From Balanoglossus misakiensis (Eukaryota; Animalia; Hemichordata), in assembly GCA_040954595.2 (NCBI GenBank), contig CM082578.2:1532831-1596830 (forward strand): a DNA stretch of 64,000 bases, given 5' to 3'. Position numbers and translations under genes: made by a program. The notes beneath the pieces were generated by a model. The model was not told the origin of the DNA. It made no database searches and saw only the letters and a list, made by a program, of their open reading frames with translations. Positions 488-36,360 of this stretch are shown here, one piece after another; the stretch's first letter is position 1; every line of letters begins with the position of its first letter.

Positions 488-671
488 GTATACAACGGTA
501 CTGAGAGTGATGATGATGTCATTATTGGTCCATGGAGTGGCAATTCTGATGAAGTCATTGATGGCACATTGCCACCACCCGATTGCCGTACAGACATTGG
601 ACACTTTTCGGTTGTGTTCAGGAGTAGTAGAACACGACCAGCTAAAGGATTCAGGGCGTCATTTTCACCAG
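488..671 (+). CDS. Exon: C-terminal half of a CUB domain
   Basis: VYNG...IGPWSG...FSVVFRSSRTRPAKGFRASF; ctgaag| acceptor and |gtatac donor. Confidence 0.75.
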
Positions 672-3600
672 GTATACATAACTTACTAACATTTCAGAAA
701 AGGATGTTACAGAATTCTTAGAAACACGCACTCCCTTTATTCCTTATGATTTAGAGTCATTAAGTGAAAGGTGGAAAGATTTTTGAATATGCTTCGTTCA
801 TTCTAAGAATGATCTAATTTCAGGGACTTGTGGATGAATTGTAATGTTTATAATCTTTACGGCCCTGATACGGGTTTTGTGGCCCGAGGTCGTACGGCGG
901 AAGCGCCCGACCGCAGGGAGGGCGGGAATCGACGTACGACCGATGGCCGCAAAACCCGTATCAGGGCCGTAAAGGTTTTATCATATGCCTTATTGAACGA
1001 TAATCTACAAGAAACTAATAAAATACACATTCTGTAATATTTTGGAATGTAAATATTATGTGTTTATTATGTAAATATTATCTATCGTTTTGGAATGATC
1101 TATCCCGTAGCATAGAGGCGCATTCCTCCAGTTCTTGCGGATTGATATGCACGATGTCATTTGTTTATATTCTATTGCACGTGAGATATAGACGCGCTCG
1201 AACTCACAGAGCCGAGCGCGAGCAAAACATTATTTTTTCTTTGCGACGATCGACGCCGACAGTCACACATTAATCAAATCAAATCATCAATTTGACTATT
1301 CATATTTCCAAATAATGCTCTACAACATGCAGCGATTACGGGAGATGATGGGATTCGGTAGCGGCATAGGACATACACACACTGCAAGTGCACTAGTCAC
1401 TGACACCGCACCAGAAAAATTTAATTCCGAACGTAGCAATGACAACTTTCGAATCTCGCGCAATAAACACAAAACTAGATCCGGATATTGAACGCGTCTT
1501 CCAAATATGGTCACCGGGCCGGGGCGTGATAAGCAAAAAAACTGCAGGGATGTGAGGGCGCTTTTCCCCATAGACTTTACGTGGGCACGTGAATATATAT
1601 TTTAATGTGTGTGTTCTTGTTTTTTACTTCTCTTGCTGTGTTTTTATGGGCTACGAGCCTGAAATAAAGATTATTATTATTATAGGCATATGATAATAAA
1701 CATACAAATGCGGCACGACGACCCCTCACATTTATGAGTCAAAGTATTTGTCTGCATGCATTCTTATCATTGTGATCCTTGTTCTGACAGACTGTCCCGA
1801 AATTGTGATTGGTGAGGGCGTGGTGACCAGTACAGATGATAGAAGCTATGATGTCACTGTCTCATTCCAATGCTTGGATGGTTATCAGAAAGTGTCTGGT
1901 ACTGTCTCTTCTCTCTGGAAACTGGAATGAAGAGGATCCTCTCAAGTTACCAGCATGTCAAAGTAAGGCAATAGTGCACTATTCTTCGATATCAAATAAC
2001 GTCAGACGCAGTTCCGTTGGCATTCAAATTTCCAGATGACGGGCAACATCAACAACTTGGTGCAGACAAAGACAGTGCAGATGAAACGCCATGAGGCTGA
2101 TGAGGCACCATACCTGATACATGTTACGTGTCTGGTAGTTCTAAAGTAAAAACATACTCGGAAAAACTTTTACTGGATGCCGAAATATTGTTTGCCCGTC
2201 ATCTGGAAATGACAACACCGTGGGTCACATGGCCAGATCACGTGATTGATAGTAAAGAATTGGTAGGACCGAATCCAGTAGAAGGGGTCCAGCTAATTTC
2301 TACATAATTTGGTAGCTTTGAGGTCACTCTTTCAGAAGAAAAAAAAACATTATTAGAAACCCATTGCCTGTTGATTTCCAGTGCGTAAACAAGCCTACAT
2401 TTCCTGTTCCACAGTTCAGTCAAGTTTAGGAGAAAACTAAAGTCGTCTCAATGTGAACTGTAACTCATGTAGGAATTAATGACTTCTCGTACAGGTGTCA
2501 TGTTGTTTGTAGCTATAAAATTTCTGTGATGGGAATTAATGTGAAGATATGATTCAATCTAACTTATATTTTATGAACATTTAAAGGGACAAAGTCTCAC
2601 TCACTGCCCTTTTCCATGAATTATGTTTGATACAAGACACCGTTTATGTTATTCTACATGTGGGTATACATGTATAGTGAATCAACGTTCGACCACACAC
2701 AACTTCCATACTGTTGAGTAATGAGAGTAAAAATCTCGCCAAAATGAGTAAATGGTAGAGACCGATTATTCATTTTGGCGAGTTTTTCACTCTTGTGTCT
2801 ATAAATGGGATGGAATTTGTGTGTGGTTGAATGTTGTTTCACTATACCATGGTGTCTTGTATCAAAGATAATTAATGAAAAAGGGGCAGCGAGATAGACT
2901 TAATTTGTCCCTTGAATCTATTGTTAGTAACAACTTGAATGACACTAATTTGTTGTTTATTTTTTAGGAATAACATGTGGTGGACCCCCTGAGTGCAGCA
3001 ATGGAATTCTTACCAATGTTACCAGTACAGTGTATGGTGGAATTGCTTATTATCAATGCATTGAGGGCCATCAGTTTATAAATAATGTGACTTCATTGGA
3101 ATGCCAAGCAGATGGTGTCTGGGGTCCGCTTGTGCCCCAATGCGAGCGTAAGTTGATATTTTTGAAAACAATTAAACTGTCATTGTAGTGCACACGTAGG
3201 AGATGGATTTTACAGGGTATATTGGCCTACTGTTTGGAGTAGAACAAAACATTGCATTTGGTACAGAGAACAAAAAATACTCTAAAACAGGTTATTTTCG
3301 CAACAGGAAATTTTCGCAATATCGAAAGAGGCAACTGTTATGCGAGGATTAATTTTCGCGTTTTCATATATCACTAACTGCATTGTTATCTCTGAAAAAC
3401 ATTTTACGCGACTTTTTATTTTCATGTTCTTTGGCTCTCGCGTATTTCGCTGAAATGTTTTGCTCGCGAAAATAGCCCATTTTGCAGTACTTAAAATAAA
3501 GCCAATTACAAGTTACTGTAGCTACATGTAATGTCCCTTTAAACTTTTTTCCTAGTAGTAACACGCTTGTGATGTTATCTGTTCATCTTACCCAAACAGC

Positions 3601-6600
3601 TCGTGAGTGTCCACCACCGAATGTAGACAACTACTTATCTTATGAAATTGTTAATGGTGATTCATTGGTTTTTGGAACAACCATTGCCTACTCATGTCCA
3701 TCTGGCTACAGTCTGACTGGCTACACTGTCTCTACATGTGGTGAAGATGGATCTTGGATTGGAGATCCAGGATACTGTCAACGTAAGTCATTTAAGGACA
3801 TGTACGTTCACTAAAATTGAAAGTATGGTCATTTCTTTTAATTGTTGATTTTTGGATTCGCCTTTGTATGTATAATGAAAATCAGTAATGAAATATACGG
3901 GTCACCGTGCTTGTTTTTGAAATACAGAGCCATGAATTCAGTCGATAATAGAAGAAAAGGAGTCTATGGTATCTGGACTTTTATAGTGGGAACTTGGGGT
4001 GAAAAGGTTAAAGTTGTTTCACAATACAGGTACCTGATACATACCGGTATACCACAACCAAGTCTGAATCCACATAATCCATTAAGATGTTTTATTTTTT
4101 TTTACTTGCAGGATTAAACTGCAGTGACATACTCATAACAGACCAACATTTACAAGCTGTCCCAGATAGTGGACCATATTATATGGGCAGCAACATCACA
4201 TTCTATTGCGATGCTGGCTATGAATTAAATGGTGCTGATTATCTGACATGTCAATCAGATTTACAGTGGAATGATGCAATACCATCATGCATTGGTAAGT
4301 TCACATCATGATTGGTCTTCATGTGGTTGTCTGCTTATTAGGCCAAAAAAAAAGGAAATGTTTCTGGTCAGACCCTTCTTTAAAAACTGGTGGGGGGACG
4401 CAAATTTAAAAAATAAAAATTTCTCTCAAGGGAAGAAGGACGGTCAGTTTTATAGTTTTTATCAATATAGTCACATGTACACTGTTCATGCAGTCATTGA
4501 TTACACGCCCCAAAATGTCCAGTGATTTATATCTAGTTGAAGCAGTTTGAGTTTGCCGTGGCCGCCACCACAAACCAGGAAAAAAATGGGGGTGACACGC
4601 TGTTATTCAAGTGACCCACGCGCTGACCAGAAACATTTCATTTTTTGGCCTGAGTTATTGTAATCACTCCAGTAATTCGACTGCTCCATTAGTTTGACCA
4701 CCCACTAATCTTTGGATAATTAATTATTCTACAACCTCCAATTGTTCGACCAGTACGTGACTGCATAATTCCCCCACCCCTCACCCCCACCCCCGGAGTT
4801 TTAATATCCTCATATAAGTGCCCTTTATCGCTACAGGAAATTTTTGCGACCGGAAATTTTCGCGATATAAAAAGCAGAAACTGTTACGAGACGATTAAGT
4901 TTCATGTTCTCGTATTTCACTGCATTGTCATCACTGAAAAACATTTTTAAGCGAATTTTTATTTTCACTACGTCTTTTTTGGCTCTCTAGCGTAAAAATT
5001 TACTGTTTGCGAAAATTTCCCGTTGGTCTAATACCCAGCTAAACTTGTTGGTCCGAATTTTCCCCTTGGACCTCTGGGATTTTGATCATATCTTGATGAA
5101 TAACATTTCAGATATCAATGAATGTAGTACATTGGTGGCACCATGTGGAATCAATCAAGTCTGTGAAAATAGAGATGGTGACTATCAGTGTGCATGTCTG
5201 GTGGGATTTGAACCGGATGTGAATGGAACAGCATGCAAAGGTGAGACATAACCAGTCACATACAACGTAACTTCAAGTCACTATTCACATTTAACACATT
5301 CCAAACTATCTGGATAAATTTTCAGAATTTCCTTGTAATTTTAAATTTTCTTCAACAGACATATTAACCCTGTGCCGTCTACAGCGCCCTCAGATGTCCC
5401 ATACGGGAGAAACCACAGCGTCTGTACACGTCCGATGATTCCAGAACATCGGGCGATTCAAAAAGTGTGGGATACGTAACGGTTTCTTGTGAAATACGTG
5501 TTATCTTTTTCTAATGACGTATTAAACATATGATAGGCTCTCATTTCCCGCCAAGAAAATATCATGTGATCATTTGACCTTTTGCCGTTATCAGCGATTT
5601 AATCTCAAGGGACGCTACAGGATGCTGCCGATTATTTTTAGTTAATTTATTCACGACATTTGTTGACAGAACTGACTTGACCTACCTCGAATTTTGTGAG
5701 AAAAATTGTGGCATATGCCGAAATAATTTGATTTTTCTTAAGGATGACGATTGGGAAGAATTTTTAGGACTAAAAAATGTTGAAACTGCTAGCGGTTTTG
5801 ATGAACATGAACGGGAATGGGAAGTTTTGAATTTTGAGGCTGCGGCCGTTGAACTTTCACCGGAAGCACCGGGCGACTTGCGCAACGTTCGTTGGTAATA
5901 TCGGAGATTTAATTTTATTAAATTATCACTGTTTTTTCGGAATCTGGTCCTAACCATTGTTTGGAAATAGGTACCCATTTTTTGGCAGTTGATTGCCCAG
6001 AATTTTATGAAGCATCTTGCCAACGAGATCGTGCTACACAATGTCAACAAGTCCACGCTGCTGACTCGAATCTAAAATCAAGGCTGATGAAATATACGGG
6101 AGTTTTAATATTGACGTGAATATTTTTATACGTGTTCGCTGTTTTCCACACGTCAAATTAGTTCACTGGTGACAGATTTCAAGTACCAGGCATCGCTAAG
6201 ATCATGCTAATGAGCAGATACAAAAAACTTTGCGAGTATTTTCCATGTAAACAACAATGACCTTGTTTCGACCTGAGGTGACCTGATCGTGATCGCGTGT
6301 TCAAAATCCGGCCCCTGTTAGAGATCGTTCATTTATCATTTCTAGCCAAGTTTTATGCATTTTAGGAGCTGTCCATTGATCAGGCTACGGTGTAATTCAA
6401 AGAAAACGGCCATATGATATAAATGCCTGTAAAACCAGTCGAGTGGGAGTTCAATGCGTATGCATTGCAATGAACATAGTTGCATGTTATCATACCGGCT
6501 ACTGCTTGAGCGCGAGCAGTTCAGCTGACTGGCAACTGACATAAATGTCATGTTACAACACAGAAGGGTAAAAGGGATAACAAAAACTATAATAAATAGT

Positions 6601-9600
6601 ATAAATAAGACAACCAGACTCTATATTTTGTTCATGTTGATTCCAAGACAAACTGTAGTTGCTGAACAAAAAAAATAAAATTTTCTCTAAACCGTGTTCC
6701 AGAATATTCAGTAAGGTAAAATGTAGTGGAATTTTTATATTTTCATAATCATTTTAGCATCATTTGAGAGCCCATTTTTTTAGCTTTCATATGGAAATAT
6801 GTTGCTATAGTCAATTTTTAGCTCAATTTTGGTTATATTGAAGAAAAGAAATCACTGTCAGTCATTGAATAATATTTTCTAATTTGAGTGGAAAGTTCTG
6901 GTCTCCACTGTGCATTGTTATGCAAATGAGCTGGGCTGCATAGGGTTAAAGTGTTGCCATCACCTTGACACAACTTTATCATAATTTATCTTTTAAGTTC
7001 ATTCACAACCTAAAAACAGTCATTTCCTGGAAATGTTCATCTGTTTTCTCTAAAATATCAGCTGAACTGTTTTGTAGAAGGAAATGTTCAACTAATTATT
7101 TCACAGATTTTTTTTCTCCCAAAAATTGCTGAATTTTTCACTGATTTCCCCCCCCCCCCCTAAATTCAGCTGAATTTTACACTGATCAGACACTTTTGGA
7201 AAGGTGTGGCACAAATTACTGAACGTACATCCTTAATGCAATTTTTTAATCCAACCCATGTTCCTTCTTTACTACTTTGTAGATATAAATGAATGTGCTT
7301 CACATTCTTTTGATCAACTTTGTGAAAACACTGCAGGTGGTTTTCAATGTTCCTGTGAAGAAGGCTATCTCTTATATGCAAATAACGGCACAGGTGGATT
7401 CTATCTACCACCTGGAGAAACTGGTCTCTCAATGTATGATGTCTACACTTTTAACCAATCATGTGTTCGTAAGTATCATGTTAAACTATAGAGTTAAAGG
7501 TATATGATCACCCATGGAAAATTAGCTATAATAGTAACCATGGAAAATTGAAATCTAGCCAATCACAGACTTTCAGTGGGAGGTACACGTGAAAAAAGAG
7601 TGCCACGATATGTTCTTTAGAAGGCTCTAATATGCCATTTCAGCCATATATGGGCATATATAAATTGGAGGTGACTGTATACCTTTAACCAATATTTGTC
7701 ATATTATTGACCTTTATACCGCAATGAATTTGCAGCGACAAAAATTGGACAAATGGCTGAATTTCATAATTGGATTTCATAATTTTGCCGTAATTCAGTT
7801 ATGAAATGTGGAGAAACTCAGCAGACCAACTTTGCACCGTCATTATTCATTTTGGATTTGTTTCTCTCCTGCTAACAAAAGTGTGTTCTCACCTTATGGC
7901 ATGAACATGCATTGAATTCTGAGGAAAAGGGGATTAATACTTGAGTGTATTTACAAAGACAAACAAGCTCACTGGTAGCATTTAAAGGGGAAGTCCGGTT
8001 CAGCTACATAGTTGGGTAGCTTTGAGGTTATTCTTTCAGAAAAAAACATTGTGTAGAAATTATGCATAAATCAGCTGGACTGGACTTCCCTTTTAATATT
8101 TCCAAGCAAGGCAATTGGTTTACTGCAACAATTATTACTTTGAAAACACAGTGTAAAACAACAATCATGATATGAATGTTACTTTAATAGATAGTCATAC
8201 TTATATAAGCATGACTGTCTATGTTGGTCTGTAAGTTGTATTTGAAAGAAAAGTTTCATGTACGAATAGTACGAAGATTGACATTTAGTGTTCTATGTAA
8301 TGGCTATAGTTTGTCATTCTATAAAAACATATATTAATTTGTGTGTACTTCACCAATATTCTCTTCTTATTCCTAATCTTGTACAGCCGTGACGTGTATT
8401 GTACCCAACATTTCCAACCCAATCCCTATTCCAAATCCATGTGAAGGATCCCTAGTCTGGAACATAGAGGAAACTGGTGATATTCTGGTGGAGTTCAATA
8501 GCACCATTACATTCTATTGTTTGGAGGGTTTTCAACTGAATGGACAGTCCACTCTGTTGTGTACAGTGGAAGGCCAGTATGATGCGGACTTTCCAACTTG
8601 CACACGTAAGTCAATATTTTTTTTTTTAATCAGAAAACCTTGATATTATTATACATCTGGCATCGAGAACAATAGAATTTGGCGTATGGAAGTTGTGTGT
8701 GGTTGAACGTTGATTCACTACATATCCACATGTAGAATAACACAAACGGTGTCTTGTATTAAATATAATTAATGGAAAAAGGGCAGCGAGAGAGAGACTT
8801 TGTCCCTTAAAAAGTGATTACAGATTTATCCCAGGCTCTTCCTTCAACTCAACTCTACGTGTATTTTCTACAGCTGCTGTCTGCAGTGAACCAGAGAGTA
8901 TTGATCATGGCAGCTACGAGGTCAATGACCCCAACTACAACTATCAGAGTGAAGTGACCTATAGTTGTGACATTGGATACAACTTATATGGTAGCCATGT
9001 CAGAGTGTGTACCTACAGCAGTCAAGATGGTGATTACCGATGGAATTCCTCTCCTCCTGTCTGTCAACGTAAGTAACAGGAATGAATAATGCTATACCTT
9101 ATATTCCTTAGAATTCTTTTGCATTCTATAGATTGCAATACGCATTAAAGTTATGTAGCACTCTTTGATCAACAGTTGAAACTACAGCATGAGCTTTCGG
9201 GAACATGTAGTCCCCTTCTTCAGATGCACTCGTGGAAGATTCCAAGCTCGTGCTGTAATTTCAACTGTTGATCAAAGAGTGCTACATAACTTTAATGCAT
9301 ATTGTACCGAAGATCACCACGGCAAAACTCTGAATTGTCATTCTATAGATTCTATCATTTCTATAGAATTCAATAGAAACAGGCTTCAATACTTCAAAGA
9401 AAATATGTGCGCTATATAAGAACTCACTATTATTATTTCTAGGTGTTGACTGTGGTTTGTTGACTGCGATTGAAGATGGCTCATGGGAATATAGTGATGG
9501 CACTTGGTATGATAGTGTTGCTACACTCCAGTGTAACATGGCATATGAAGCACTTGGTAACACCAGGAGATATTGCACTGAAGATGGAACATGGAATGGC

Positions 9601-12600
9601 ACCAGACCAAGATGTGTTGCTCAGGGTAACGTAGAAAAGAATATTTCTTTCAGAGAAGCAATCACTTCTGTTTGATAATAGTTATACTCTGATGAAATTC
9701 ATGACATTCACACACAATGTGTTGTTTGAATACAGTGTAAAATGGGGAATTTTTGGGCCAGAAATTTTCGCAATATCAAAAAAGGCGACTGTTACACTGC
9801 GACTACTACTTTTTCACTTTCTTGTATTTCACTGCATCGTTATTTCCGAAAAACATTTTAAGCAACTTCGAAAAGTACATACAAATATATAGATGTCCAT
9901 AGAAATTATTTAAACTTATATAGAAATTCAAAAGGCTAATGAATTCTGTAGAATGATGTATATAGAATGTTTTTGTAAGGAATGACTTCTGTCTGAGTTG
10001 ATGATTTAATATTGATAAGATACTTTGCTTCTTGACCTCAGGAGAATGTCAAGATCCTGGTACACCAGTCAACGGTCAGAGACATGGCAATGATTTCGAC
10101 ATTGGTTCTATAGTGTCATTCAGTTGTGACTATGGATTCACACCAAGCCATCAAAACCCTTTGATGTGTGAAGGAGATGTTGTGACTGTGTTGCCAACAA
10201 CACCTTCTACTACAACTACTGGTGTGTATATACTGTTGTTATAAACATCGTGGTGTGCTGAAACAGTACCGTGATAACTTCTATGTTCATGTAGTGTGAT
10301 ATATGGAGAAATGGTTCAGAATGCCCGCTTCCAAAACAACAGAGAGGCTTTAAAAGCTATTTGAATGTTGAAGTGAAACTTGATAAACAGAATTCAATCA
10401 GCATAACCTCTATTGCCTCCATTGTCATAGAAACAGAAACGGTCACAGACATGTCAACTGCAGAGCTTGGGACGACAGAAATGGATGGAACTGATAGAGC
10501 GGCAACAGAAGAGGAAGAAGTGACCACATTGTGGATGAAAATCTCCACAGCAGCTGCAGACACAGATGTTATGAGAACCACCAAGAGAGCACAGACAGAT
10601 GGCATGGTAACCACAACGGCAAAAGTACACACAGATGATGTGGCAACCACGGCGACAAAAGTACACACAGATGATTTGGTAACCACGACGGCAAGAGTAC
10701 ACACTGATGCTCAAACAAGAGATGCAACAGGTACGTCAAGTACAAACATCCACTGAATATCTGAAAACAATATGACAAGTTTACTTTACAGATGTCCTCT
10801 CAGTGGAAGTGAAAGTATCTCATTTCTTTTAATTGTGGATTTTTGGTTTCTCATTTGTTAGCATAATGAAAAGCTGTATAATACAGGGGTCACCATGCTT
10901 GAATTTAGTCATGGCCTTGTGTAGTTGAAAAACAAACAAACAGCTGAGTCAGCATTTCTTCACCCAAAAACATTTAACGATATTTATCTCTGAATAGACT
11001 GTGGTGACCATACAATTTTATTTGACCAATGAATTTATTTTCATTTAACTGAGCTAAATTGTCATGAAAATGACAATAGTAGTGAGTTTATATCAATCTA
11101 ATCCCATGCGAAGAGACAAATGTGCACGAATTTGCGCAGTTTACAAGTTTACGTTCTGTGTGTACATCAGTAATAGGTTGTGTAGCAAAATGTAGCAATA
11201 ACATCCAAATTCCATTCCAGTCAAGTTATTTATCATATAGTTATATTAAATAATTGATATTAAATAATCATTAGTGAGATCTATGGAATCTCACATATTT
11301 TAATGCAGAATGACTTGATTTCCATATGCAGGTTATGAGGCGCCATCAACGCAGGCAATCACTGTGACTGAAAGAAAACCAACGACAGATTCAGATAAAG
11401 AATTTACAACATCTGAAACTACTAGTGCACCACTTTCAACTAAAATATCAACAACAAAACCAGTGACACCTTCTCATGATGTATCAACAGGTAATTATAC
11501 TGTGTATTCGTATAATTCGTATTCATATCAGTATTTGTCCTTTTTTGCCACAATTTAAGAAAGGAATATATTTTGTGGCAGAGAAATGGTAAATACTTAA
11601 TACCGTATACCAGTATATCTAATTTTTTACATTGGCAATATGGAGCAAGAAACATAGCATGCGCTAGTCAAGTCTTGCCCCATTGTCACATATATAGTAA
11701 TATACATTGCAATTACTGAACAATATTATGGCTTCTGCTGAATGTGTGTGTGTACCGATAAACTGTGCATATTGACTGGCAGTGAGGGCAACAGCATACA
11801 TTTGTTTCCCTAAGGGACTGTGAGTCAACCCAGAACAGTCTGTTTCTAGAGGCTGAAGGCCGATGGAAACAGATTGTTTTGGGGGTAATTTGCATTCCCG
11901 AGGGGACACAAACGTATGCTGTTATCCGAACATGGCTAGTCGATATGTGTTTCATTATCAGAAAGCAGCACAAATCAGGAAATTTCTCTGCTGTACATCA
12001 TCAATTGGTCTTCATTGTAGATGATATATCACCACTGTACAAGGTCCCATACCTGTAAATAAATGATAAAAGCTTACACACAAACACATTTCACCAGATT
12101 AGAAAATGTACCACACAAACCCATTTTAGGATATTAACTCTTCTTGCAGCAAAGAATATCTTGCTTGTGTTGTTGATTTTACAGTCAGTAGAGATTGTGG
12201 AACCTTTGAGACTTTTGTAAACACATCTTGTGAGAAGTACATTGAGACACCAACTGATGGTACCTGTTCATTTGGAACATTCTACACAAGTATGGTTGCT
12301 GGTATGGCCAATTTTCAAGATTCACATGTAAGTATAAAGTTAGTTCTTGAAAGTCAATGTACCGCTAAATGTTTTGCTCCAGTGTCAATACTGACCAGAT
12401 TGTCTCCAATTTCTCATTGTGATTTGTAACATTGTTATGAATTATTTTATTTTGTCTTGTTTTGTGTGTTGCACTGTATTTTTTTAAATTTCTCACCCAA
12501 GATTGATATAATCACTAAATGTACTTGAAAAAAACTGCATACTGTAGTATTTCCAGTGTTGTCTAAAGGAGTTTTTTGGTTTGTGTAATTGCAGGTTTGC

Positions 12601-15600
12601 GGGCAATGCCTGAATGTGATTGGTTCAAATGATGCATCTGTAGTTGTCCGGGTAACAGACATGTGCATGTACCTGTACTGCATGAGTGATGAAGATGGTC
12701 TGGTTCTAAGTCAGGATGCTTACAACATCTTGTCAGATGGTGAAAGTCCTTCATCTCTTCTTGTATCCTACTCAGTTGTTGCCTGTACTGAGGATGTCTC
12801 TATCAAGTTCAAGGTTTGTGAAACAACACAATTATTAACTAATTTATATACCCTTGTCTTTAATTGTCACATCTTGGCAAACTTGTTTGAAACCTCCCTA
12901 GCCATTTTTTTAAGTATTTGTAAGATTGAAGTTTAAATTGTCAAGAGTATTCATCTGTTTCTTTACTGGAAGTTTAGATCTCCTGGAAATCAAACCAGTC
13001 TCAACTGATTTGGACAAGGGAAGATCCAGTGGGGACTAGGTCATTGACAATGATTTGTTGCAAATACTGTAAAACGGGAAATTTTCACGCCAGGAAATTT
13101 TCGCAATATCAAAAGAGGCAACTGTTACGTGAGGATTAATTTTGGCGTTCTTGTATTTCACTAACTGCATCGTTAAATCTGAAAAACATTTCACACGACA
13201 TTTATTTTCACGTCTCTTTTAGATCTTGCGTATTTTGCGAAAATTTATGCTCGCGAAAATAACCCATTTTACAGTAAGTCTTGCTCTAAATTTCAAAGTA
13301 TTAGGACCAACCAGGGACTGTGTTGTTCATCTTTTTAGTGTACTGCATATTGATTGATTGATTTGTTTATTTAGTTTGCAGAGAGCATTTCTGCATCATT
13401 CAGCTTATTAATATTGGATCATCGTTACCCTGTCACCACTGTGGAAGTCCACACAACTGGTCCCTGGATTACTCTAGACAGACTCAGTGATAACTTATTT
13501 GAACCACCCATTGGTTCTGGTGATATACAAGCCCCTCTAAATGTCAAGGTCTATTCGGTGTCTGGTAAAATTAACTACAGGGTTACAGACTTTGAGTTTG
13601 ATGAGATTATTGACACCTCCAAGCAATTTCGACATTGTGAGGATGATGAGCTTGAAGTTACTACACTTCCAGACTTTGGAATAGTTACAACAATTGAGAG
13701 TACGCTTGAAGGTAAGATGGTTTCATTTTATACAATATGTAATTAGTTTACTGTATAACATAGGTCAATGTTGCTGATGATTTCAATGGAGTGTAGCTGA
13801 ATTTGTTACATTAGTTGTGATATCTGATATTGTGTTTTGCACACCAATATCTGGTACACTCTTATGCAAAATTTTCGCAAGAGGAAATGTTCATGATATC
13901 AAATGTGGCAACTGTTACGTGGCGATTAATTTTCACGTTCTGGTATTTCACTGCATCGTTATCTCTGAAAACCATAAGCGACTTTTTTTTTCACCAGTAA
14001 ATTTATCGTTCGTGAAAATTTCCTATTTTACTGTATTTTGAATAAGAAATCTCAACACCCTCATAAACAATTGCATTAAAGAAAGCAATAGAATAATAAC
14101 ACAATATCATTTGAATCACACACCGGGATGAGAATACCTTGAAATTGTCTCCTGCCAGGAACATTGATTCAATACTGTTCATGTTAGTGGAGAACAATAT
14201 AACATTAGATTTCCTTGTTCTAGATTATTCAAATTGTAATGTTCATTTTTATCAACAGATGAAACAACGCTGGAATATTTAACTAGTCCCTACACCGAAG
14301 GCACAGAAAAAAGCATCTCAACTGATGGATATGCCATAACTTTGCCCAGAATGACAACTGTGTTGGACACAGACAATATACCGGCTGTGACAACTGGAAA
14401 ATGCAAGTCAACCACAACAGTTACTATGGTTACAGTAACCATGCCTGTTGTCGTGACAACAGTAGAGGCAAGTTCTGAAAAGCCTGATCAGCAGTCAAGC
14501 ACAGAAGGTGAGGGTACATACAAGACAACATCTGCTCCGATCTCAAAAACAGAAATGATGTCAACAGCAGAATCTGTGGATATTACTCCTGCAGACCAGA
14601 CTTCAGAGTATGACGATGCAAGTGATGTGATGCCAACAGAGTCATGGACCACACCAGAGAAATTGTTGACAACAAACAAAATGGACGCCACCACACCAGA
14701 GACACTTTTGACAACAAATAAAATGGACGGCACCACAGAATATTGGCAAACGGTAGAAGGCACCACAGAATGGCATACACAAATGATAACTGATGAAACT
14801 GCCACTTCCCAAAGAAGAACAACAAGAAAACATACAACTGAGGCACCGACAGATCTGTTAACATCAAAAGGTGAATGTATACGAATTTCTACACTTTTCA
14901 GCATTATGAGCTCCAAAGTAAGGATGGATCTTGTTTACTTAGTTGACACGACTCTAGCTCCTGGATGACACCATTATTTTTAGGGGGTGAGGGGTGGAAG
15001 AAAGGAGAAAACATATTCACTCCTCACTTTTTTTTCAAAGAAATGTAGGTTTACTTCCTATTATGATAAAGTAAACTATGAATAATAAAACATTGAAAAT
15101 TTGGCTTTATTGATAGAAACTTCATGTACGGGTACAGTGAAAATTTCAATTGAAAAAAAAAATTCATAATACCTGCAATGTAAACAGTTAAACAGTTATA
15201 CATTGTTAGTTACCATCATCATCGTTGTTTGAATCAGACTCTATGTCACAAATGAGGCAATAACAATGCTCAGTGCAATTGATCTGTATACAGTTGGTCA
15301 AATAACTCTTCCACTCTTATCATATAGACACCCATGTCCAGTGTGTAATATAAAGTATTCATTCAATTTCATTTATACAGTATATCATGATGTCAGTACT
15401 AAACCAACTACGAAACCAGCAACAACTCTGAAAGCCACAACAGGTGGTCTTACGACCCTACCAACTCCAACTCAACTACCAGGTAAGAGATATTACCCTT
15501 AGTTTGGTTGATAACGTGTTGTATTTGAGTGATGTCTCAAAGTGTTAAAACAAAACATCCAGAAAACTTGTTTTTGGAAGTTAATTTAAATTGCTTGTCA

Positions 15601-18600
15601 CATGATAGTTGTGTAAACAATGGTCACACCAAAATGTTCTCCTATATTTACTTTCAGAAAATATATACTTTTAGGGGATTCTCGATAATTAACAGAACTT
15701 GATAATTAACAGAGAAATGTTTATTTCAAAAAGTTATTTTTTTTTTCTTGTATCTTTCATACACACCATGAAGTAATAATACAGTTAAATTTAAAATCAG
15801 AATAAACCACAAAGAGTTGAACCCATTTATGCTTTGAACAAATTGACCTGAAGAGAATAGGAGTTGTATGGGTCTGTATTTACAATTATTCGATAATTAC
15901 TTTGCAGACCGTGACGTTCCTGACTACTGTGCACAGCTTAGTGTGTCATATAATGGTAGTGGGCAGATTACAGACCAGCAATCCTGTGGCAACTACTATG
16001 GTACAGAAATAACAACACAACTTGTTAATGGTTTAACTCAACTCCTGTCTCAAGATCCATCAGGAGCATGTGTTCCTCTTGCTGGTCTGGTTACAATCAA
16101 TATTGCATTATCCACCACCAGTCTCACCTCGCTATCGGATAATTCGGTGGGTACTCTAACTGTCTCTTTCAGTCTTGCAGAAAATCTTGTAGACTCTTTC
16201 TGGAGTCTAGAATATTACACTCAACAAATTGTTCACTTCATAGCATTTTATCTCACATGCTCTTCAGATTGCATATCCAAAGAAAAAATGCATATTGGGA
16301 GAATATTTTCATGCAAATGTGACAACCATGCGATGTTTAATTTTGTCGATACAATCGATCGTAAACTGCTCAGCTGAAACAGTGAGCAGTCATCTTTCTT
16401 TTTTGTTTACGTGCGTTGGAGTGGGGATGTCTTGAAACCATCCGCATAACAGTACATACCTGTACACGGTGAGTTGGGGCGCCTTGAAACTTAAGGCGTA
16501 TTTAACACGCGTTCTGTACGTACCGTTCCGTATGGCTTTTTAGTACACGCTAAATTCTATTGTTCTTGGTGCCAGATGCATAATAATAAAGCATATTAAA
16601 CATAACATCTTTTAAAACAAATGCTTATGACTGTATTTTCATTACCTGCAGCTTTTAATGGATGTGGGGCTGAACTTACTGATTGAACCCATAGACCCAT
16701 TGAGCCCTGGATACGACAATGCAGAATTGTCGGGATGTGGTCTTCAACTAATCTTTTATCCGACCAACCATCCAAGTGTATTTCCAATTTTGGTTGCCAT
16801 TGACAGTTCAGACAATTGTCCAGAACTATCATCTTCTGCAAACCCAATTCAAGAAGATGATGCAACATTCTGTTGTCCTGAAGGATATGAGCTCTTCCAG
16901 AATGTCAGATGCAGTATGTATAAAATCATTATTTTTATTCACACTAAAGTGGCGCTTATATCTCTTCTTTTCTTTTAAGGATGTACGCGCAGAACATAAA
17001 CCGGAAAACTGCACGCACCCGTCTTTTTCCCTTAGGATTACATTGATAATTGCTAGAAAACAAACTTCTTCTATTGTCATTGTCACAAAATTTTCTACAT
17101 AGCTCAGTCCAGTAAATATAAATTCATTGGTCACTTAAAATATAAGGGTCACCTTGCTCTATTTTGAGATAAATTGCATTAAAAAAAAATTTGCCCATAG
17201 ACAAACCATTGGTGAAAAATGCTGAATCAGCAGTTTTCTGCTATTATCGACTAAATTCGTGACTCTGTAATGTGTATTTCATAAACAGGCACGGTCATCA
17301 GGTAAATGCATGCTATGAGCGGTGTGTTACAAGCATGAATTAAGTATTACTAACAGAAAAAAAATTCTTCTTATTTCAACAGCAGCCGCAGTGGAAGTTG
17401 TGAGGAAAATAAGGGATGCATCTGAACAGTCATCATTTCTCACTAATGCTAAATGGAATGGCACTGCACCTGTTTGTATTGGTATGTTCATTAGGTCAAA
17501 ATAAAAAAATATGTGCTGTTCCAATTACCCGACCTACCCTAATTATAACCCGCTGACCCTAAACATTTTAGAGCTTCCTAAACCGGAAGTATAAAAAACA
17601 ATGTCAAATATACAAAATTTATGAAAATTGCAAGAATCACGTAAGAATTATGACGTTATTCTTATACACTACGGCGGCCAGAGTAATAAAAAAAATGCAA
17701 CATAAAAAAACATTCCCTACCTACCTACCCTATTTTTGAAAACCATGTAATCAGAACAGCACAATTTAGCAATTTATCCGCCAGATTGAGTTCTTGAATG
17801 AAATCACCAATGTTGGAATTGGATTTTAATGTTTGTTTGTGTTTCATTTTAATTTGATTCTGATTGTGTTTCATTCTGATTTGATTTGATTTGATTTCAT
17901 GCATTGTCTGCCTGCTTTCATTTGTGGAAATCACAAAGCTTATAAATGGTCCATCATTGGAGTGGTTGTCAACATCACTGGGAAAAAGGACGATGTTCAA
18001 CTGGTTTAGCAATTGGGGTTGTCATGGAGCCACCTACAGAACAGTTCTTCTCCCAGCTGAATTCAAGATTACTATGTCGCTTTAATGGCTGGCAAGTATT
18101 GTGGTTACAAACTTGGCAGATTACAGTCTCATATCTTATGAAATATTTTTTGGCTTGCAGATACCATGCCACCAACTTTAGACTGTCCAGACACGTACGT
18201 AATTCTTGTTGATGAAGTGGAACACAATGTGTCATATCCAGCAGTCTCTGTTGTAGACAACCACGGAATCAGTGACGTCATATATGAACCACCAAATGGA
18301 ACTGCAGTTGAAACCAGGAACTACATCACAGTGACTGTTACTCAACCGATTACAGTGGCAACCAGGCTCAGTGTCAATTTGATGTTTCTGTTCAGCTAAA
18401 CTAGCCCACTAGTCGCTTGGTGAATTTTGAATCTCAATACTTTTGTGTGTTTGTGGTGATTTTTTGTCTTTATAATACTTTTTGTGTGCATGCTGCTTTG
18501 AGCGTTTTTCTGGTACTGAGTTGAGTTTCGAAAATAATGCAAAAAGTGGTGGCAGAGACTTTAAACATTTAGAAGTTAATATGGCATTGTTTTGAGACAT

Positions 18601-21600
18601 TAGACATTTCACCTTTTAACATCTCATTTTGTTATTCAGCTGATACATGTCCAGAGTGGTCACTACCTACACCAGAAGGTGGACAGAAGACTTGCACCCG
18701 TGTCATTGGAGGACCACTGGGTTCAGGATTCTCATGTGCATTGTCCTGTCAAGCTGGTTATGATTTCATTCAAGAAATTGATTCACCTGGAGGAATGTAC
18801 ACCTGCATAATTGGTGGAACATGGCTACCCCATAATTACGTACCTGATTGTGTTGGTGTGTATGGGCTTCTACTGATCTATTTTTGCGTAATTGAAATTC
18901 AACTGATATCATATCAATATTCATTAGGCCCCCAAAATAATATGTGAATGCTGATGCAGATAATAAACTTGAAGAACCAAAATAACCAACTAATTCAGTG
19001 TTACTGTTGGTTCAAATTTTCTCTGTATATAAACTGATCATTTTATAATCAGTCAATACCTACATTTTTATAATCAGTCAATACCTACATTTTTATAATC
19101 CGTCAATACCTACATTACCGCATGGAAGATGGCACTAGTCCAGATTTGAGTGGATTAGCAAAAATGGGATTTTTTCACCAGCTTAGTAAAGCGAAGACTG
19201 GATTGACGATTGACAATTCAACTAGTTGGCCTGAAGTTAAATTCTCTTCCATATTGATCTTTCCACAGAGAAGGAAGTTCCAGATTATTGCCTGACTGTG
19301 GGAGGTGTATACAACTCTGTGATAACCATTCCAAGTGATACCAACCAATGTATCTCATATTACGAGTCGAGTCTGCTTGGAATTGTGCAGTCTGTTGAAC
19401 CACTGTTGTCGGTCCTGTGTAACTCGATTGAAGACAGTGTTGAAGTTCAAAGTGACTATTCAACAATGGCCATAGTAGACTCCAATCAGGTATTATTATC
19501 TGTCCTGCTGGAAAATTTTACAGTTTTACGCTGAAGAAGAAGGTTGATGTAATCCTTTATTTGATTTCTGTCGTTACATTATTGTACAATGTGTTACCCT
19601 AAGGTTGGGTTCTCCAAGGTGTGTCATTTTTAAGAAGCATTATCTTGTTATTGGAGGGACAAAGTCTCTCGCTCGCTGCCGTTTTCCCATTAATTATGTT
19701 TGGTACAAGACACAGTTTATGTTATTCTACATGTGGATATATAGTGAATCATCATTTGACCACACACAACTTCCATCTTGTTTGTAGGATATGAGGGTAA
19801 AAACTCGCCCAAAATGAATGAATGGTATTCATTTTTCGCGTGTTTTTTCACTGTCGCGTCTACAAGAGGATGGAAGTTGTGTGTGGTCAAACATTGATTC
19901 TCTATATATCCACATGTAGAATAACATAAACAGTGTCTTGTAATTGTATCAAACATAATCCCTTTAAATACTCCATAATAGCTTTATCTTTTTGCTACTT
20001 TTTCAGTGTGTTTGTTTTGTGTATCTACTGCAGTTTCTTGTATAGGGAATCATCATCTGCCCATGCCTGTATCGCTCACTCTTTTTGTTTCTACCGTACA
20101 TGTATTTAACACTGAATGTAATGATACTATTCACAACCACCATCACCATCATCATCATCATAATCATCATCACCACCACCACCACCACCACCACCATCAT
20201 CATCATCATCGTCATCATCATCACCATCATCATCATCAGTTTCTGCTGTTCCAAGAACTAGGCTTATCATGAGTGTAATTGATCATATCAGTTATTATGC
20301 CTATGGATACCATCTCATGACTCCTGTCCTATCTTGTAGTGTTTCTTGACAGTGATCTAGTCTATTCACATGTATCAGAAAACAAGCACTTAACAATATC
20401 TGGATTTCTCATGAATATGTGACAGATATTAACATCTAGAAGTGCATTTACCTAAATGTACCAGTGTATGCATAGGGGGTGTGGACCAGTTGTTTAATTT
20501 ACAAACATTTGTTATTCTTTCACTTTTTTTTCTTCAGATAAACACGCTCCTGAAGTCATTTACTGTCCCAATACGACCCGTATAATTAGTCCTAATAGCT
20601 TGACAACAGGAGTATGGCAGGAGCCTATATTTACAGATGATGTCGCCATTGCCAATGTGACACAAACCTACACAATGGGTAAGTTTCCTATAAAATATCA
20701 TTTCTGATTATAGATAATATATAACATTCACACTAACTAAGTTTTTTTTATCGGGGTGGGGTGGGGAGTTGATCTAAACAGAAACCAACAAGCTGAGACA
20801 ACTTTCCTAAGATTATGGTCAGTATGAAGCATACTGGTACAGTTTATTCTTGTGGCCGTTACTCATATATGGCTAGCACATCCTATGTGCGACAGATGAT
20901 CTTGCTTCCAAGTATTAAAGCCTCAATTGCTGATACTATTACCATATGTTTATAGGCCCTTTCCTCGATCCCAGGGCAGTACAATGAAGTTAAAACTCGA
21001 AAGCATTTGTGTTTGCACGTAATTGTTTATTGGAAACAAAAGATTTGACCAACTGTTGAGCAAGGCCTTTAATCAGTAAAGTACTTAATATTCTCAACTA
21101 CTACTGGGGATACCCATACCACAAATGTTGTGTTCTCTTACAATGGGCAGTTGAATAAACGTGTGCGGCACCATATCTGTTTAGTATACATATCTTGTTC
21201 ATGTTTATATGTACAGTCACAATCAGGAGTTGATAATATGCCTGTGTATACCCACCAGATAGCTCACTTAAATGGACCATTCTAAGTTTGAAAAGAAAAT
21301 CATGAAAAACATTCAAGAAACGGAAGCTATTTTGGCTTTAGCACCCATGCCTGTAATGATGTGCATAATTTTTTTCTTACAGGTGACACCTTTTCCTGGG
21401 GAACCTACCAGATCAGCTATGTTGCTTCAGATACAGCTGGCAACAATGCACAGTGCAACTTTTTACTCTATGTACTGCGTGAGTGAATTTTTTTATCATT
21501 CATACATAAACTTTACAAATTAATTAATATCTTGACAAATTGTCATCTCTACCCCTTGTTATGTCTTGTCACATACTGTAAAACAGGACATTTTCGTGAC

Positions 21601-24600
21601 AGAAAATATTTTGCAATATATCAAAAGAGGCAACTGTGACACGAGAATTAAATTTCCGCATTCTAGTATTTTACTAACTACTCTGGTATCTCTGAAAAAC
21701 ATTTTATGCGACTTTATTTTCTTCTTCTTTTTTGCCGAAGTTTGGGAAAATTTGCCGTTTTACAGTAATATGATTGCATCATTATCACTTATAACAACAT
21801 CATTCAGAACATACAAGGACACTCAAACCCGTCTAAAACAAACCCTGTCTAATCGGGAAACCTCTCTTCAACCAACAGCTTTTCCTAGTCCCTTTTACAT
21901 AGAAACATGTTAATGTGTTGGTGTTCTGTTTACAAGATTTGACTGTGTAATAAATATGGGTGTCACACATACACCATTAAGACAGTTCTGAAGCATCTCA
22001 GAATTGATACTGTCTTAAAAAAACATGTGTGGACGGTGTAAGTGGTCCTGAAACGTCTCAGATTTGAGATGGCTCTGCCAGCCAGACCTGAGCCGGTGTA
22101 AGGATTAACACCTCTCCGCAACCCATTGTCTATGGGGCCGAGCCTCAGCGCCCATACATAAACTTTGATTGGATGACATTTTGCATTCCTTAGTTGACAC
22201 ACACAAAATGTTATCCAATGACGTGAAGTGTATTACACGGCAGAGACTACAATGTGCCAGAAGACAGTTCCAGAGTCATTTATTCAATGTTTTTTAACGA
22301 ATTTGGCTAATTTGTGGCCGTGTGAAAAATATAATCTCACACACCAAAGACCTGGGATCATATTTCTCACGCTCATCAGGGATATTTTGTCCCACACTCG
22401 CCTGCGGCTTGAGTGGGACAATAAATCCCCAACTCATGTGTGAAATATGATCCCAGGTCCTTGGGGAATGGGAGATTCTAGTAACCCCACACTCTGGCAG
22501 ATTTGAAAGCATTATATGTGCAATACATGGACAGAAACTTCAATGTGCCAGCAATCTAATTAGTATCAGATGTAGAGTTAGGCGCTTTTGATAGGTTTGG
22601 CTATTCTGTTCTCTTAGCTTTGGCTGTTCTGTTCTCTGTCTTGGCTGTTCTGTTCTCTGTCTTGGCTGTTCTCGGGTGCACGCATCTCTTTCAAACAGAA
22701 CAGCCAAGAATCAGCGAAAGTAAAGAAGGCGCCTAATTCTACATCTGATTTTAATCAGATTGATGTGCCAAGTGACAGTTACACGAGAAGTAGAATCTCA
22801 AACACCGAGGAACCTGAAATAAGATTTCTGACACTCAAACTAAAATATTGCATCTCACACTCACCTTTGCCCATGAGAAGAAATCTAACACCATATCCTT
22901 TGGGATGTATTAGATTCGGTTAATCTCCTACATGGGACGCAAGACCTGTAATTCATTTTCCATAGCCAACAATGGGAGCTTTGAGCTAAATATTCCTATT
23001 TTATAACATTCAGCGAGCCAAATTCCATTGCATGGTTTTATCTTTGATGTTATATTCTGCCATTATATTTTCCAAGAAATAAAAATGAGGAACAGTGGGC
23101 TGTCAGCAGATTACCAATTGATGTTGGCAACGAAACTGGGGAACCCATCATTGAAGAGAGACAAATTCGAATCATGACAAATCCAGCAAAACCTTTTGAC
23201 TCAGGTGAAGTATTTGAGCCCCAGTAACTCTAACATTTGACTGTTTTTTCAGTATTTTTCTCCTGTGTCATTTTCTTCTTTTACTCTTTATAGCTTTTCA
23301 ACAAAGTCTGTATATAAGCAACGGCCATTGTTATTGTAGAAAATGAATTCGAGTCTCGACTTCATTCAATTTTCATCAATAACAATGCAGATTACTACAA
23401 AAGGGCTGTTTTGAAATAATATCCTAGTCCCTTTTACATAGAAACATGTTAATGTGTTGGTGTTCTGTTTAAAAGATTTGACTGTGTAATAAATATGGGT
23501 GTCACACATACACCATTAAGACAGTTCTGAAGCATCTCAGAATTGATACTGTCTTAAAAAAAACATGTGTGGACGGTGTAAGTGGTCCTGAAACGTCTCA
23601 GATTTGAGACGGCTCTGCCAGCCAGACCTGAGCCTGTGTAAGGATTAACACCTCTCCGCAACCCATTGTCTATGGGGCCGAGCCTCAGCGCCCATACATA
23701 AACTTTGTGTGTGTGGACACAACATGACTCAAAGGATTAATGCTCTGTGGTTAGCACTGGCAAATAGTGTCTCAAATTTTACCCTGTGTGAACCTGGTAA
23801 AAGAGGCATTGTGCCCTAGTGGCTAGGGTTGTGGGTTCGTTACCTAGACCTGGACATTTGGGTAGTATTTGCCTCTTGGATGATATATGAGACACAGACA
23901 TTTGGGTAGTATTTGCCTGTTGGATGATAGATGAAATAAAATTAAAAATATATAGACAAATAAACTGTGTTCTCCTTTCTTTTACAGCATTTGATTGTAA
24001 AAAGCCAGCACCACCAGTTAAAGGTATTTCCATCTGTAATGAGTTTGAGTCGGGTGTATTCTGTCACGTGGATTGTTTACCAGGATACAAGTAATACAAG
24101 AAAAAATGATTTGGTATCAGTAAAGAAATACTGTATACCGTTTTATTTTTGCGAGCGATTTATTTTTGCGACATTCGCGTGTACAACAAAACGCGAACTT
24201 TTTCCTTCGCAAACATATATACATTTCAGCTTACACACTGTACTTCTCACCTGACCTATACACACACACACGCACACAACAACAAGACGATACACCCGGT
24301 TCTTAATCAATACTATGTACATTTATTTTTAATTCAATGTTGGAAAAAATATAAAAGGAACAAAAATAAATAAAGAGAAAATGATCATCTCATAAAGTGT
24401 GCTCCACATGAAACACGTAGCCTACGATTGCACAACTTTCACAACCGGCCGGGGCCAGGAGGGTTAACCGTACGACTCGGGCGGAAAATGGCGTTCACTT
24501 GGCTGGTTCAAGAAAGCAAGTGGCAGACAAAATAACAGTATTACCAAAAGTAAAATCATCAAAACAGTACAAACGAAAAAAATATTATGATATATTTACA

Positions 24601-30526: not shown

Positions 30527-31924
30527 TACTTTTAATGTGCCATCTCTGTGTGTACATGTATGGTATAATTCAAATGATAACTAGAATGGTTTTCATTTTG
30601 TGAGTTGACACAGTACTGTGATAAGCTTGGTATAATCCCATAAATGATAACAATAATAGTTATGCTTTGTCAGACGACAGTACTGTGATAAGCGCACATT
30701 AAATTGGTTGGAGTGAAACAGATCTTTATTATTACACTCTTAGCAACATCTGAATGAAATGATCATAAATAATCATCTTTAAAGTATGTTGGTTATAAGG
30801 CTATATATTTTACATATTTTAAAGAATTTTCCTTAAAAATTTGTTATGACTTATTATAAGGTATAGTGTAATGAGAAAGATATGATAATACGAGAATTCC
30901 TAAACAACAACATATTTGTGTTGAATTTGGAGGACAAATTTAACAGTGTACCAATTCAGCTCTCCCTTTGCATGCTGACTTGCTTCTGTATTCATACAAG
31001 GCAGCATTTATCCTTAACTTGATCAGATAGAAGGTCTTTTCATCCAAATGCATAGATTATGAATTATTTCTCTCAATATATTCAGTGACTACCTCCCGAT
31101 GATATATATCCTCCTGAATTAGTGCTTCAAATTTTGATATTTTTCTTGATATTTTTCTTTAATTTGACTTCAACCGTCACCATTCTCCAAGACTGTAAAA
31201 GAAGGGAGATGATGATTAACTATTATCAATTTTTTTGCCCCTTGTACTGTCTTTTCAACTGGCCGTATAAATCTGATATTTGTTTGGCATGCGAATTTTG
31301 GAATATGGATGTGTATGATCACAATTATAAGATCCTCAAAATAAAAGATCCTATCATTTCATTTGGTTAATAACCAGTTCATAGGTGAATGAAAATATAG
31401 TTACTCACTTTGAGACCTGACATGTATATATAATAATTCAAAGTATTTATTCGCATATTTTTATATTATTCATGGTGTTATAGATCAATGGAAATTTTTC
31501 AAATTAAATTCATGTATATAAAATGTAGCAATGTAATGTCATATGTGAAACCCTTAATCTTGATATTGTAATTCATTGTAGAATATGATTATATTGTGTT
31601 ATTCACTCAACTTGTGCATGTATGTTTAAGATTCATGCAAAATTACTTTTTTATACAAACTGTTCCTTTTTGTGTTGTTCGGAGGTGACAACTCATCAAC
31701 AATGAAATAAGTTTGGGAAATTTTTGAACAAAGTCATGAAGTGGAAGTACTATAAATAAGTTTAATATCTTCTGTAGTTGTTATAATAAGACATCAAACC
31801 AGGTCCAATAATCAATATTACTCAAGCTAAGCTAATTACCAGGTCCAGGTTCAAAAAAGAAATAAGAGAAAAACTTACAATTTCAACAGGATCATCTTGA
31901 ACCACTGCTAAGTGGTAGTACTCG

Positions 31925-36094: not shown

Positions 36095-36360
36095 TGCATC
36101 ACGGGATACTTCTTTGTAGACTATCGAACCTTGGCATCTCAGACACAGTACTAACATGGTTTACATCTTACCTTCAATATAGATATCAAACTGTAATCAT
36201 CGAAAACACTGCAAGTTCACAGTCACCTCTCGTATACGGGGTGCCACTGCCCCTCTGTTGTTCACCATTTATATAGCCCCACTTTATAGTAAACCGATTC
36301 GTCCCCACATCGTACAATTTCATCAGTACGCCGATGATAACCAGCGATACCTCGCCTTTT
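36095..36360 (+). mobile_element. Old L2/CR1 reverse-transcriptase fragment (also at 45624-45890)
   Basis: HGILLCRLSNLGISDTVLTWFTSYL..RYQ..GVP ... HQYADDNQ. Confidence 0.8.

Follow-up and report, generated by a model that had tools for sequence, protein, structure and literature searches.

The window analysed here, a stretch of 64,000 nucleotides from the acorn worm Balanoglossus misakiensis (GenBank assembly GCA_040954595.2, contig CM082578.2, positions 1,532,831 to 1,596,830), encodes an expansin module, with the two-domain DPBB plus CBM63 fold, in frame within the gene of an Uninflatable-like membrane protein. The identical fusion occurs in Saccoglossus (three copies) and Ptychodera (two copies) and is therefore old and common to both; none of the six copies retains Asp82 or W125/W126/Y157, the core, the cysteines and a set of new aromatic and acidic positions being kept. 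We regard these three points, taken together, as close to certain. Our preferred reading, to which we assign a probability of roughly 0.6, is that the module, having lost its active residues, was likely copied from a resident expansin and likely acts as a non-catalytic binding head, not as a wall loosener.

The module is encoded on the + strand by three exons with AG/GT ends, located at 12185-12327 (143 nt, phase 1-0), 12595-12813 (219 nt, phase 0-0) and 13375-13711 (337 nt, phase 0-1), which together comprise 699 nt or 233 codons; the exons reported in a preliminary description of this DNA are real, and the motifs quoted there are present. Exon 1 encodes the first third of the DPBB domain (domain 1), including a module-specific aromatic pair, and is 60% identical to residues 1615-1664 of P. 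flava XP_070567428.1. Exon 2 encodes the remaining DPBB and the inter-domain linker, with Asp71 retained and Val at the Asp82 position, and exon 3 encodes a CBM63-like second domain, from which the aromatic triad is missing, and then about 25 codons of linker. The expansin fold stops at about codon 208, the final 25 codons being a Thr-rich linker. Four Thr/Ser-rich mucin-like exons of phase 1-1 flank the module on the same strand, two upstream (10431-10730 and 11332-11490) and two downstream (14259-14870 and 15381-15482), so that 11332-11490 and 14259-14870, each phase 1-1, are its immediate neighbours. Joined in a chain, 19 exons spanning 2968-17481, among them sushi, EGF, mucin and module exons, translate into 1369 residues with 0 stops. 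The earlier placement of a phase-1 cassette between the mucin stalks of a sushi/EGF/HYR Uninflatable-like membrane protein is borne out. The splice joints were predicted from the sequence and from orthologous database proteins, and the mucin-to-module transition of the P. flava protein coincides with the predicted splice point in the window. RNA data (1 of 22 runs) comprised two partial reads, which were uninformative on expression in either direction, and the contigs of a second sample were of genomic type, derived from one sample, with introns covered. The GC content of the module (36%) matches that of its surroundings; a contaminating or inserted bacterial sequence was ruled out by this value, the introns, the host context and the orthologs.

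Scanned separately, exons 2 and 3 match the NCBIfam EXLX1 model NF041144 colinearly, exon 2 at positions 39-109 (E 2.8e-7, 30 bits) and exon 3 at positions 118-193 (E 2.8e-6, 26.8 bits); the cut-off of this model is 100 bits, and the window exons were scored singly. Against the same cut-off, the Saccoglossus and Ptychodera orthologs score 221.7 and 131.3 bits, summed over three and two repeats, respectively. The joined module scores 69.8 bits against a profile of 18 non-animal (bacteria-only) expansins, covering positions 12-202 of 203, versus a best score of 2.3 bits in 200 shuffles. Pfam matches were weak: exon 2 matched DPBB_1 below the cut-off (E 8e-4) and exons 1 and 3 were unmatched. The best PDB sequence match of exon 3 is B. 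subtilis EXLX1 (E 0.0043), and the module of the Ptychodera ortholog matches the fungal EXLX1 7wvr at E 6.5e-11. Exon 3 folded alone gave no usable structure (pLDDT 34.8). A model was built on the P. flava module, which is 60% identical to that of the window, from an alignment that contained expansins; this modelled structure resembles solved expansins at TM 0.64-0.76, and expansins were its best matches in structure comparison (Z 19.2, rmsd 3.2, 195 aligned; next non-expansin Z 10.9) and accounted for 12 of the 12 Foldseek matches at E<=0.001. The profile score and the ortholog model uphold the fold read from the motifs in the preliminary description. A GH45, barwin or single-domain DPBB identity was discarded because both expansin domains match. 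A DPBB followed by a CBM63 in about 200 residues, the class feature of EXLX, was found in the sequence and in the ortholog model, and domain order and size equal those of microbial EXLX proteins (B. subtilis EXLX1/YoaJ 3d30, Clavibacter 4jcw, Talaromyces 7wvr, NF041144), to which identity in structure alignments is 16-25%. Asp71, the CG.C motif, HRYP and W..L.R..N.F are kept in common with EXLX, whereas Asp82 and the three aromatics of domain 2 are not; unlike EXLX, moreover, the acorn-worm module is split by introns and is an internal repeat of a membrane protein of 4,500-4,800 residues.

The upstream part of the host gene was delimited by tblastn with both orthologs and by Pfam per exon at 488-10221 (+), and contains the end of the third CUB, sushi exons and two Ca-EGF exons, the last upstream sushi being incomplete at its C-terminus and running into mucin. 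The downstream part (15908-30532, +) encodes an unnamed Cys-containing domain, HYR, Ephrin-receptor-like repeats and EGFs, a predicted transmembrane exon at about 29824-29919 (segment read from the translation) and a cytoplasmic tail with an NPMY motif, which we take to be similar to an endocytosis signal. Pfam lists three CUB, eight Sushi, two HYR and 13 EGF domains in both orthologs, together with one transmembrane segment, which is the Uninflatable set; the full EGF/LamG block is present in them, unlike in the window, which contains only part of this set and lacks the EGF array. Uninflatable also has a C-type lectin domain at its N-terminus; in both orthologs a region that looks lectin-like by eye, unlisted by Pfam, lies beyond the window. 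Drosophila Uninflatable (Uif) is described in the available portions of PMC3340373, PMC12867482 and PMC13178913 as a single-pass giant with three CUB, eight sushi, HYR and many EGF domains, and all of these features are shared by the acorn-worm proteins, whose domain content suggests orthology with Uninflatable. The acorn-worm proteins differ from it in their long mucin stalks and one to three expansin modules. Fly Uif carries two discoidin (FA58C) sugar-binding domains (PMC3340373, available text), whereas none was detected in the acorn-worm proteins by a Pfam scan that also missed evident C-type-lectin-like and LDLa parts of the orthologs.

One expansin module is present in the window copy, three in Saccoglossus XP_077862127.1 and two in Ptychodera XP_070567428.1. 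The lineages of the latter two genera reportedly separated at least 370 million years ago. Among proteins of 2653-8444 residues, the module was found in two of 1798 candidates, both from acorn worms. When exon 3 was run by HMMER against 1.84 billion representatives, four matches were returned, of which three were acorn-worm proteins and one was a spurious repeat protein, and a word-index search with exon 3 gave no match among proteins of 157-2000 residues. There is a weak indication that the Uif of echinoderms or chordates may be without the module. Nematodes, named earlier as the most familiar animal cases of expansins, are not the only ones, as annotated expansins exist in Exaiptasia, Oikopleura and bivalves, and free-standing genes exist in three acorn worms.

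The functional residues were compared in the six embedded modules (one from the window, three from Saccoglossus and two from Ptychodera), with numbering anchored on B. subtilis EXLX1. In the alignment, Asp82 is replaced by Val in five and by Ala in one, and no aromatic residue occurs at any of the W125, W126 and Y157 columns in any of the six; expansins hold on to cellulose and loosen it by means of these residues, whose roles are described in the available text of PMC5072189 and PMC12779228. Asp82 is present in 18/18 non-animal rows. With Asp82 and all three cellulose-binding aromatics lost in 6/6 copies, the embedded module falls short of a complete, functional expansin; of the 'complete' expansin proposed in the preliminary description, the fold stands and the set of functional residues does not. 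The hydrophobic core, the cysteines and Asp71 are retained. Aromatic residues occur at module residues 32 and 188 in all six embedded modules and at residues 33 and 195 in five, versus 0/25 other sequences at each position, and these new aromatics may belong to the core rather than the surface. All six modules are acidic (pI 4.05-4.65) with conserved module-specific acidic positions, and pairwise identity among most copies is 32-49%.

Free-standing tandem expansin genes are present in Saccoglossus (XP_006812919.2 and APU50764.1, the latter named 'expansin-yoaj protein-like protein 170'), Ptychodera (XP_070533744.1) and Glandiceps (LOC144434331). Unlike the embedded modules, to which they are 24-33% identical and in the tree the closest relatives, these proteins are small, with two repeats and an N-terminal hydrophobic leader. 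Repeat 1 resembles the embedded modules in the absence of Asp82 in 3/3 species; in repeat 2, the triad of aromatics survives in 4/4 rows and Asp82 in 3/4, and the free-standing proteins may therefore be working expansins. In the tree, which was built without non-hemichordate eukaryotes (no fungal, amoebozoan, cnidarian or mollusc sequences), the embedded modules are grouped with repeat 1 (support 99/99), all acorn-worm rows are separated from bacteria (100/97), and the branch leading to the embedded modules is long (1.22). The immediate source of the module is thus likely to be the acorn worms' own free-standing gene rather than a microbe, the source first proposed; a horizontal origin as such is a candidate reading on a tree of this scope. 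A separate horizontal transfer straight from a microbe into the receptor would be compatible with an AU test that did not reject placement of the embedded modules outside the free-standing ones (p 0.099) and with the fungal and bacterial clusters found as Atlas look-alikes of the module in a search that left small clusters aside. We consider such a transfer quite improbable, given the 99/99 grouping, the prior absence of Asp82 from repeat 1 in all three species and the phase 1-1, intron-bearing cassette, an arrangement typical of shuffling out of an animal gene. The loss of the active residues in the embedded copies likewise makes it likely that a domain of the worm's resident expansin gene was reused as a binding module. 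Capture of one repeat of the resident secreted tandem expansin as a phase 1-1 cassette, and its subsequent duplication within the stalk, is a probable course of events.

As to function, heavily O-glycosylated stalks would extend the acidic heads into the mucus or surface coat. There the heads would use their new surface to anchor the receptor to a glycan or glycoprotein of the matrix, and would perhaps stand in for the two FA58C domains of fly Uif, seemingly absent here; we hold this prediction at slightly below even odds. The module might alternatively be a structural spacer or a protein-contact or dimerisation domain that interrupts the mucin stalk and binds no glycan. This would be in keeping with the disappearance of all known functional residues from a module whose core and cysteines persist, and with the divergence of most copies; the module-specific aromatic and acidic positions, invariant for at least 370 million years, would, if exposed, suggest a constrained surface and render a spacer rather unlikely. 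The module might also sense microbes or food particles: on the feeding surface, which is ciliated and covered with mucus, it would bind peptidoglycan, chitin or the glycans of algal walls, and the receptor would internalise its catch or signal. Such a sensor would fit the NPMY motif, the copy number of one to three and the many amino-acid differences between two samples, although these variant calls come from single contigs at depth 3-4. EXLX1 binds peptidoglycan avidly (PMC5072189, available text), and acidic fungal expansins, like the six modules in their acidity, bind chitin mainly via charge (PMC12779228, available text). The known polysaccharide-binding platform is gone in 6/6 copies, however, and an acidic surface would be expected to repel anionic bacterial walls, which makes a sensor unlikely.

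The host-gene copy in the window is damaged outside the module, through decay or assembly error, at four places on the + strand that had previously been missed. A sushi exon at 1791-1962 (172 nt) changes frame near 1915, and an HYR exon at 18161-18397 changes frame near 18340 and lacks a GT donor at its expected end. At 19489-20538 there is no counterpart of P. flava residues ~2917-3831, a block of about 900 residues with three Ephrin-rec-like repeats, the EGF array and LamG, and exon phases clash (0 to 1); second-sample contigs did not bridge this interval. At 23972-25198 an exon is cut by a stop at 24086, adjoining a transposon-like element with 44-bp inverted ends (24128-24171 and 25156-25198) and a DDE_1-like frame. 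In the module, the second sample differs from the window in at least ten amino-acid-changing and at least five silent codons; the differences amount, among the matches listed, to at least 13 of 541 replacement sites versus at least five of 155 silent sites (approximate), a near-neutral ratio. These four lesions and the codon ratio fit relaxed selection on the window copy, and it is possible, short of probable, that the B. misakiensis gene has decayed and its module is no longer produced. Against decay, 19 successive exons including the module are free of stops, one-base losses are common long-read errors, and a second-sample contig departs from the window at 24092 with 94 unaligned letters, roughly as many as the truncated exon lacks, so that another allele may be whole. 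Decay of this copy is compatible with the binding-head reading as applied to the orthologs.

No description of an expansin/Uninflatable fusion was found in the literature searched, subscription journals lying outside that search, which accords with the novelty first claimed, and both orthologs appear in public databases only as 'uncharacterized protein'. Expansin was not mentioned in the hemichordate literature searched, including the part of the hemichordate genome paper's supplements consulted, and literature pairing expansin with Saccoglossus consisted of nematode work only. The available text of a 2019 survey (10.1101/637728) catalogued expansin fusions with CBM1, CBM2, CBM32 and GH5, and treated the few annotated animal expansins as unconfirmed, being either real genes or contamination. 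Here, spliceosomal introns, an animal receptor context and distant acorn worms sharing the module make contamination impossible, so that animal expansins can be genuine nuclear genes, a point left open by that survey.

Acorn worms also provide a natural series on the expansin fold beyond cellulose, from the bacterial-like repeat 2 (residues kept) through repeat 1 (Asp82 lost) to the embedded copies, in which everything is lost and new residues are gained; all three kinds are small and expressible. In acorn worms it can also be traced how a wall protein of microbial type turned into an extracellular module shuffled into an animal receptor. A wider scenario, which we consider doubtful, is that acorn worms possess a possibly active expansin family of microbial ancestry, one repeat of which became a glycan-reading head of Uninflatable, replacing discoidin, more than 370 million years ago. 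Uninflatable is known for its apical localisation and its modulation of Notch; if this wider scenario is true, no expansin fold had previously been known to serve an animal receptor at the cell surface, here the Notch-modulating Uninflatable, as its ligand-binding domain.

The three exons at 12185-12327, 12595-12813 and 13375-13711 stand where the preliminary description placed them, with AG/GT ends, a total of 699 nt and phases of 1-0, 0-0 and 0-1. They belong to a chain of 19 exons (2968-17481), with splice sites picked by consensus score, which translates into 1369 residues with zero stops and runs through sushi, Ca-EGF, mucin, the module encoded by the three exons, mucin and the next domains. 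The host gene was identified as Uninflatable (Uif)-like by two database proteins that tile 479-30532 in order (tblastn) and by Pfam analysis of each exon; its exons are about 52-83% identical to Ptychodera flava and mostly less to Saccoglossus, values that suggest a further enteropneust. The eighth sushi domain (10042-10221) is C-terminally incomplete and runs straight into mucin, as in both orthologs, and the mucin stalk may have been inserted into it. Two related Cys-containing domains of ~150 residues each (15908-16913 and 19269-19489) are 58-72% conserved in P. flava and had no Pfam match.

A weak Pfam match to DPBB_1 was obtained for exon 2, and the top three of the five PDB sequence matches of exon 3 were bacterial expansins. 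Both exons matched, in the right order, NF041144, the NCBIfam model of the family of the Bacillus subtilis expansin EXLX1. Against a profile of 18 non-animal expansins the joined module scored 69.8 bits over nearly the full profile length (200 shuffles, at most 2.3), and small free-standing acorn-worm expansins scored 146-213 bits. The structure was modelled for a P. flava module 60% identical to that of the window (11-row alignment, pLDDT 78); all 12 matches at E<=0.001 were expansins (TM 0.64-0.76), and a wide structure search gave five expansins at Z 17-19, after which Z fell to 10.9. The expansin fold proposed earlier is thus borne out, by family-model and profile matches for the window module and by structure matches for the model of its ortholog.

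Window exon 3 retrieved Saccoglossus XP_077862127.1 (4825 aa, three modules), and a Saccoglossus module retrieved P. flava XP_070567428.1 (4527 aa, two modules), both unnamed database records. Each protein has 3 CUB, 8 sushi, 2 HYR, 13 EGF and 7 Ephrin-rec-like matches, an inventory close to that reported for fly Uif (PMC3340373). The passage from mucin to module in the P. flava protein falls at the same point as the window splice, which the orthologs, being computed gene models, support without proving. The fusion is common to both lineages, whose split is reported at 370 million years ago at least (PMC4729200), and is old. This domain fusion is real and, as the preliminary description suggested, apparently undescribed: the literature search, within a scope that did not extend to the animal table of a 2019 survey, turned up no account of an expansin either in Uif or in any hemichordate. 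Since the sequences are public and the family model detects them, the architecture is latent in the databases.

Compared with P. flava, the window copy of the host gene carries four lesions: a frame change near 1915 (1791-1962), a second one near 18340 in an exon that lacks its GT donor (18161-18397), the absence of a counterpart for P. flava residues ~2917-3831, where the exon phases clash (19489-20538), and an exon cut at 24086 adjoining a transposon-like element (23972-25198). They represent either decay (a broken allele) or assembly error. The window gene also lacks a second module, against two in P. flava. The conclusion of a fusion rests on two intact orthologs as well as on this damaged copy. 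A second sample, at low depth, differs from the window by at least 18 substitutions in the module exons; among the differences listed, 10 codons are changed and 5 silent, no stop codon arises and all indels lie outside these exons. At the 10 changed codons listed from this low-depth sample, the P. flava residue agrees with the second sample in three cases and with the window in one. The small DNA-transposon-like element (24128-25198) has 44-bp inverted ends, and its minus strand carries a DDE_1-like frame (E 0.0014). Elsewhere, a dispersed direct duplication (31006-37764 and 41415-47715) contains 4.1 kb at 96% identity (33281-37419 / 42843-46946) and, by eye, reverse-transcriptase-like fragments, and satellite arrays (47717-56085 and 60401-63987) have a unit of ~82-86 bp, 95-96% matches and ~50% GC.

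In EXLX1, loosening reportedly needs Asp82, and cellulose is bound by W125, W126 and Y157 (PMC5072189, PMC12779228). A 31-row alignment anchored on EXLX1 positions was used to compare these residues in the six modules embedded in Uif-like proteins (one from the window, three from Saccoglossus and two from Ptychodera). Asp82 is replaced by Val or Ala in all six and none has an aromatic in the three platform columns, while Asp71 is present in 6/6. The 18 non-animal rows, of which four are unnamed records from metagenomes or ENA and presumably bacterial, all have Asp82, and the platform aromatics are present in 16, 17 and 17 of them. A different set of aromatics, at module positions 32, 33, 188 and 195, is shared by the embedded modules and absent from the 25 other rows; these modules are also acidic (pI 4.05-4.65). 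The embedded module thus keeps the expansin fold but, judged by its functional residues, does not qualify as an expansin; of the complete expansin first described, the fold stands and the functional residues do not.

Since the residue responsible for twisting is gone, and with it the flat platform of aromatics, the module head is not expected to loosen crystalline cellulose or to bind it; the new residues that are retained suggest a ligand of another kind. Fly Uif is reported to be an apical single-pass protein able to inhibit Notch (PMC12867482, PMC13178913); if the acorn-worm protein is analogous, its place would be on the surface of epithelia, where Thr/Ser-rich stalks would hold out one to three acidic heads. 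We tentatively favour (probability about 0.45) a head that tethers to a glycan or glycoprotein of the surface coat or mucus over a pure spacer, which seems rather doubtful, and over a microbe sensor, which we consider improbable. FA58C domains were not detected in the orthologs by an insensitive Pfam scan, and that the module stands in for those of fly Uif is a guess.

Free-standing expansins with two repeats were found in each of Saccoglossus, Ptychodera and Glandiceps, one being named 'expansin-yoaj protein-like' in GenBank. In a maximum-likelihood tree of 31 rows (13 acorn-worm and 18 non-animal, with no other eukaryote), the six embedded modules formed a single group (100/99), which joined repeat 1 of the free-standing proteins (99/99); the 13 acorn-worm rows together were separated from the 18 others (100/97). 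Capture of the module from the resident free-standing gene is likely rather than shown, because an AU test did not reject alternative trees (p 0.099) and the branch leading to the embedded modules is long. Annotated expansins have been reported in Exaiptasia (PMC6626399) and in Oikopleura and bivalves (10.1101/637728). In the ESM Atlas, a cluster of 53 Nucleocytoviricota proteins (279 aa), which have no Pfam domain in common, reaches scores of 0.88-0.90 with expansin queries; as a lead only, giant viruses may carry expansin-like genes. In Bacteroidota, 7 of 401 sampled genomes passed the expansin family cut-off, and one genome has three expansin genes, including an adjacent pair.

Asp82 is absent from repeat 1 of the free-standing proteins in 3/3 rows; repeat 2 has the aromatic triad in 4/4 rows and Asp82 in 3/4, and from these residues looks like a working bacterial-type expansin. 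A single repeat 2 scores 172 bits on NF041144. Some of these proteins end in a hydrophobic tail, which may be an anchor signal. For the question of what an animal does with an expansin, the free-standing proteins may be the better target.
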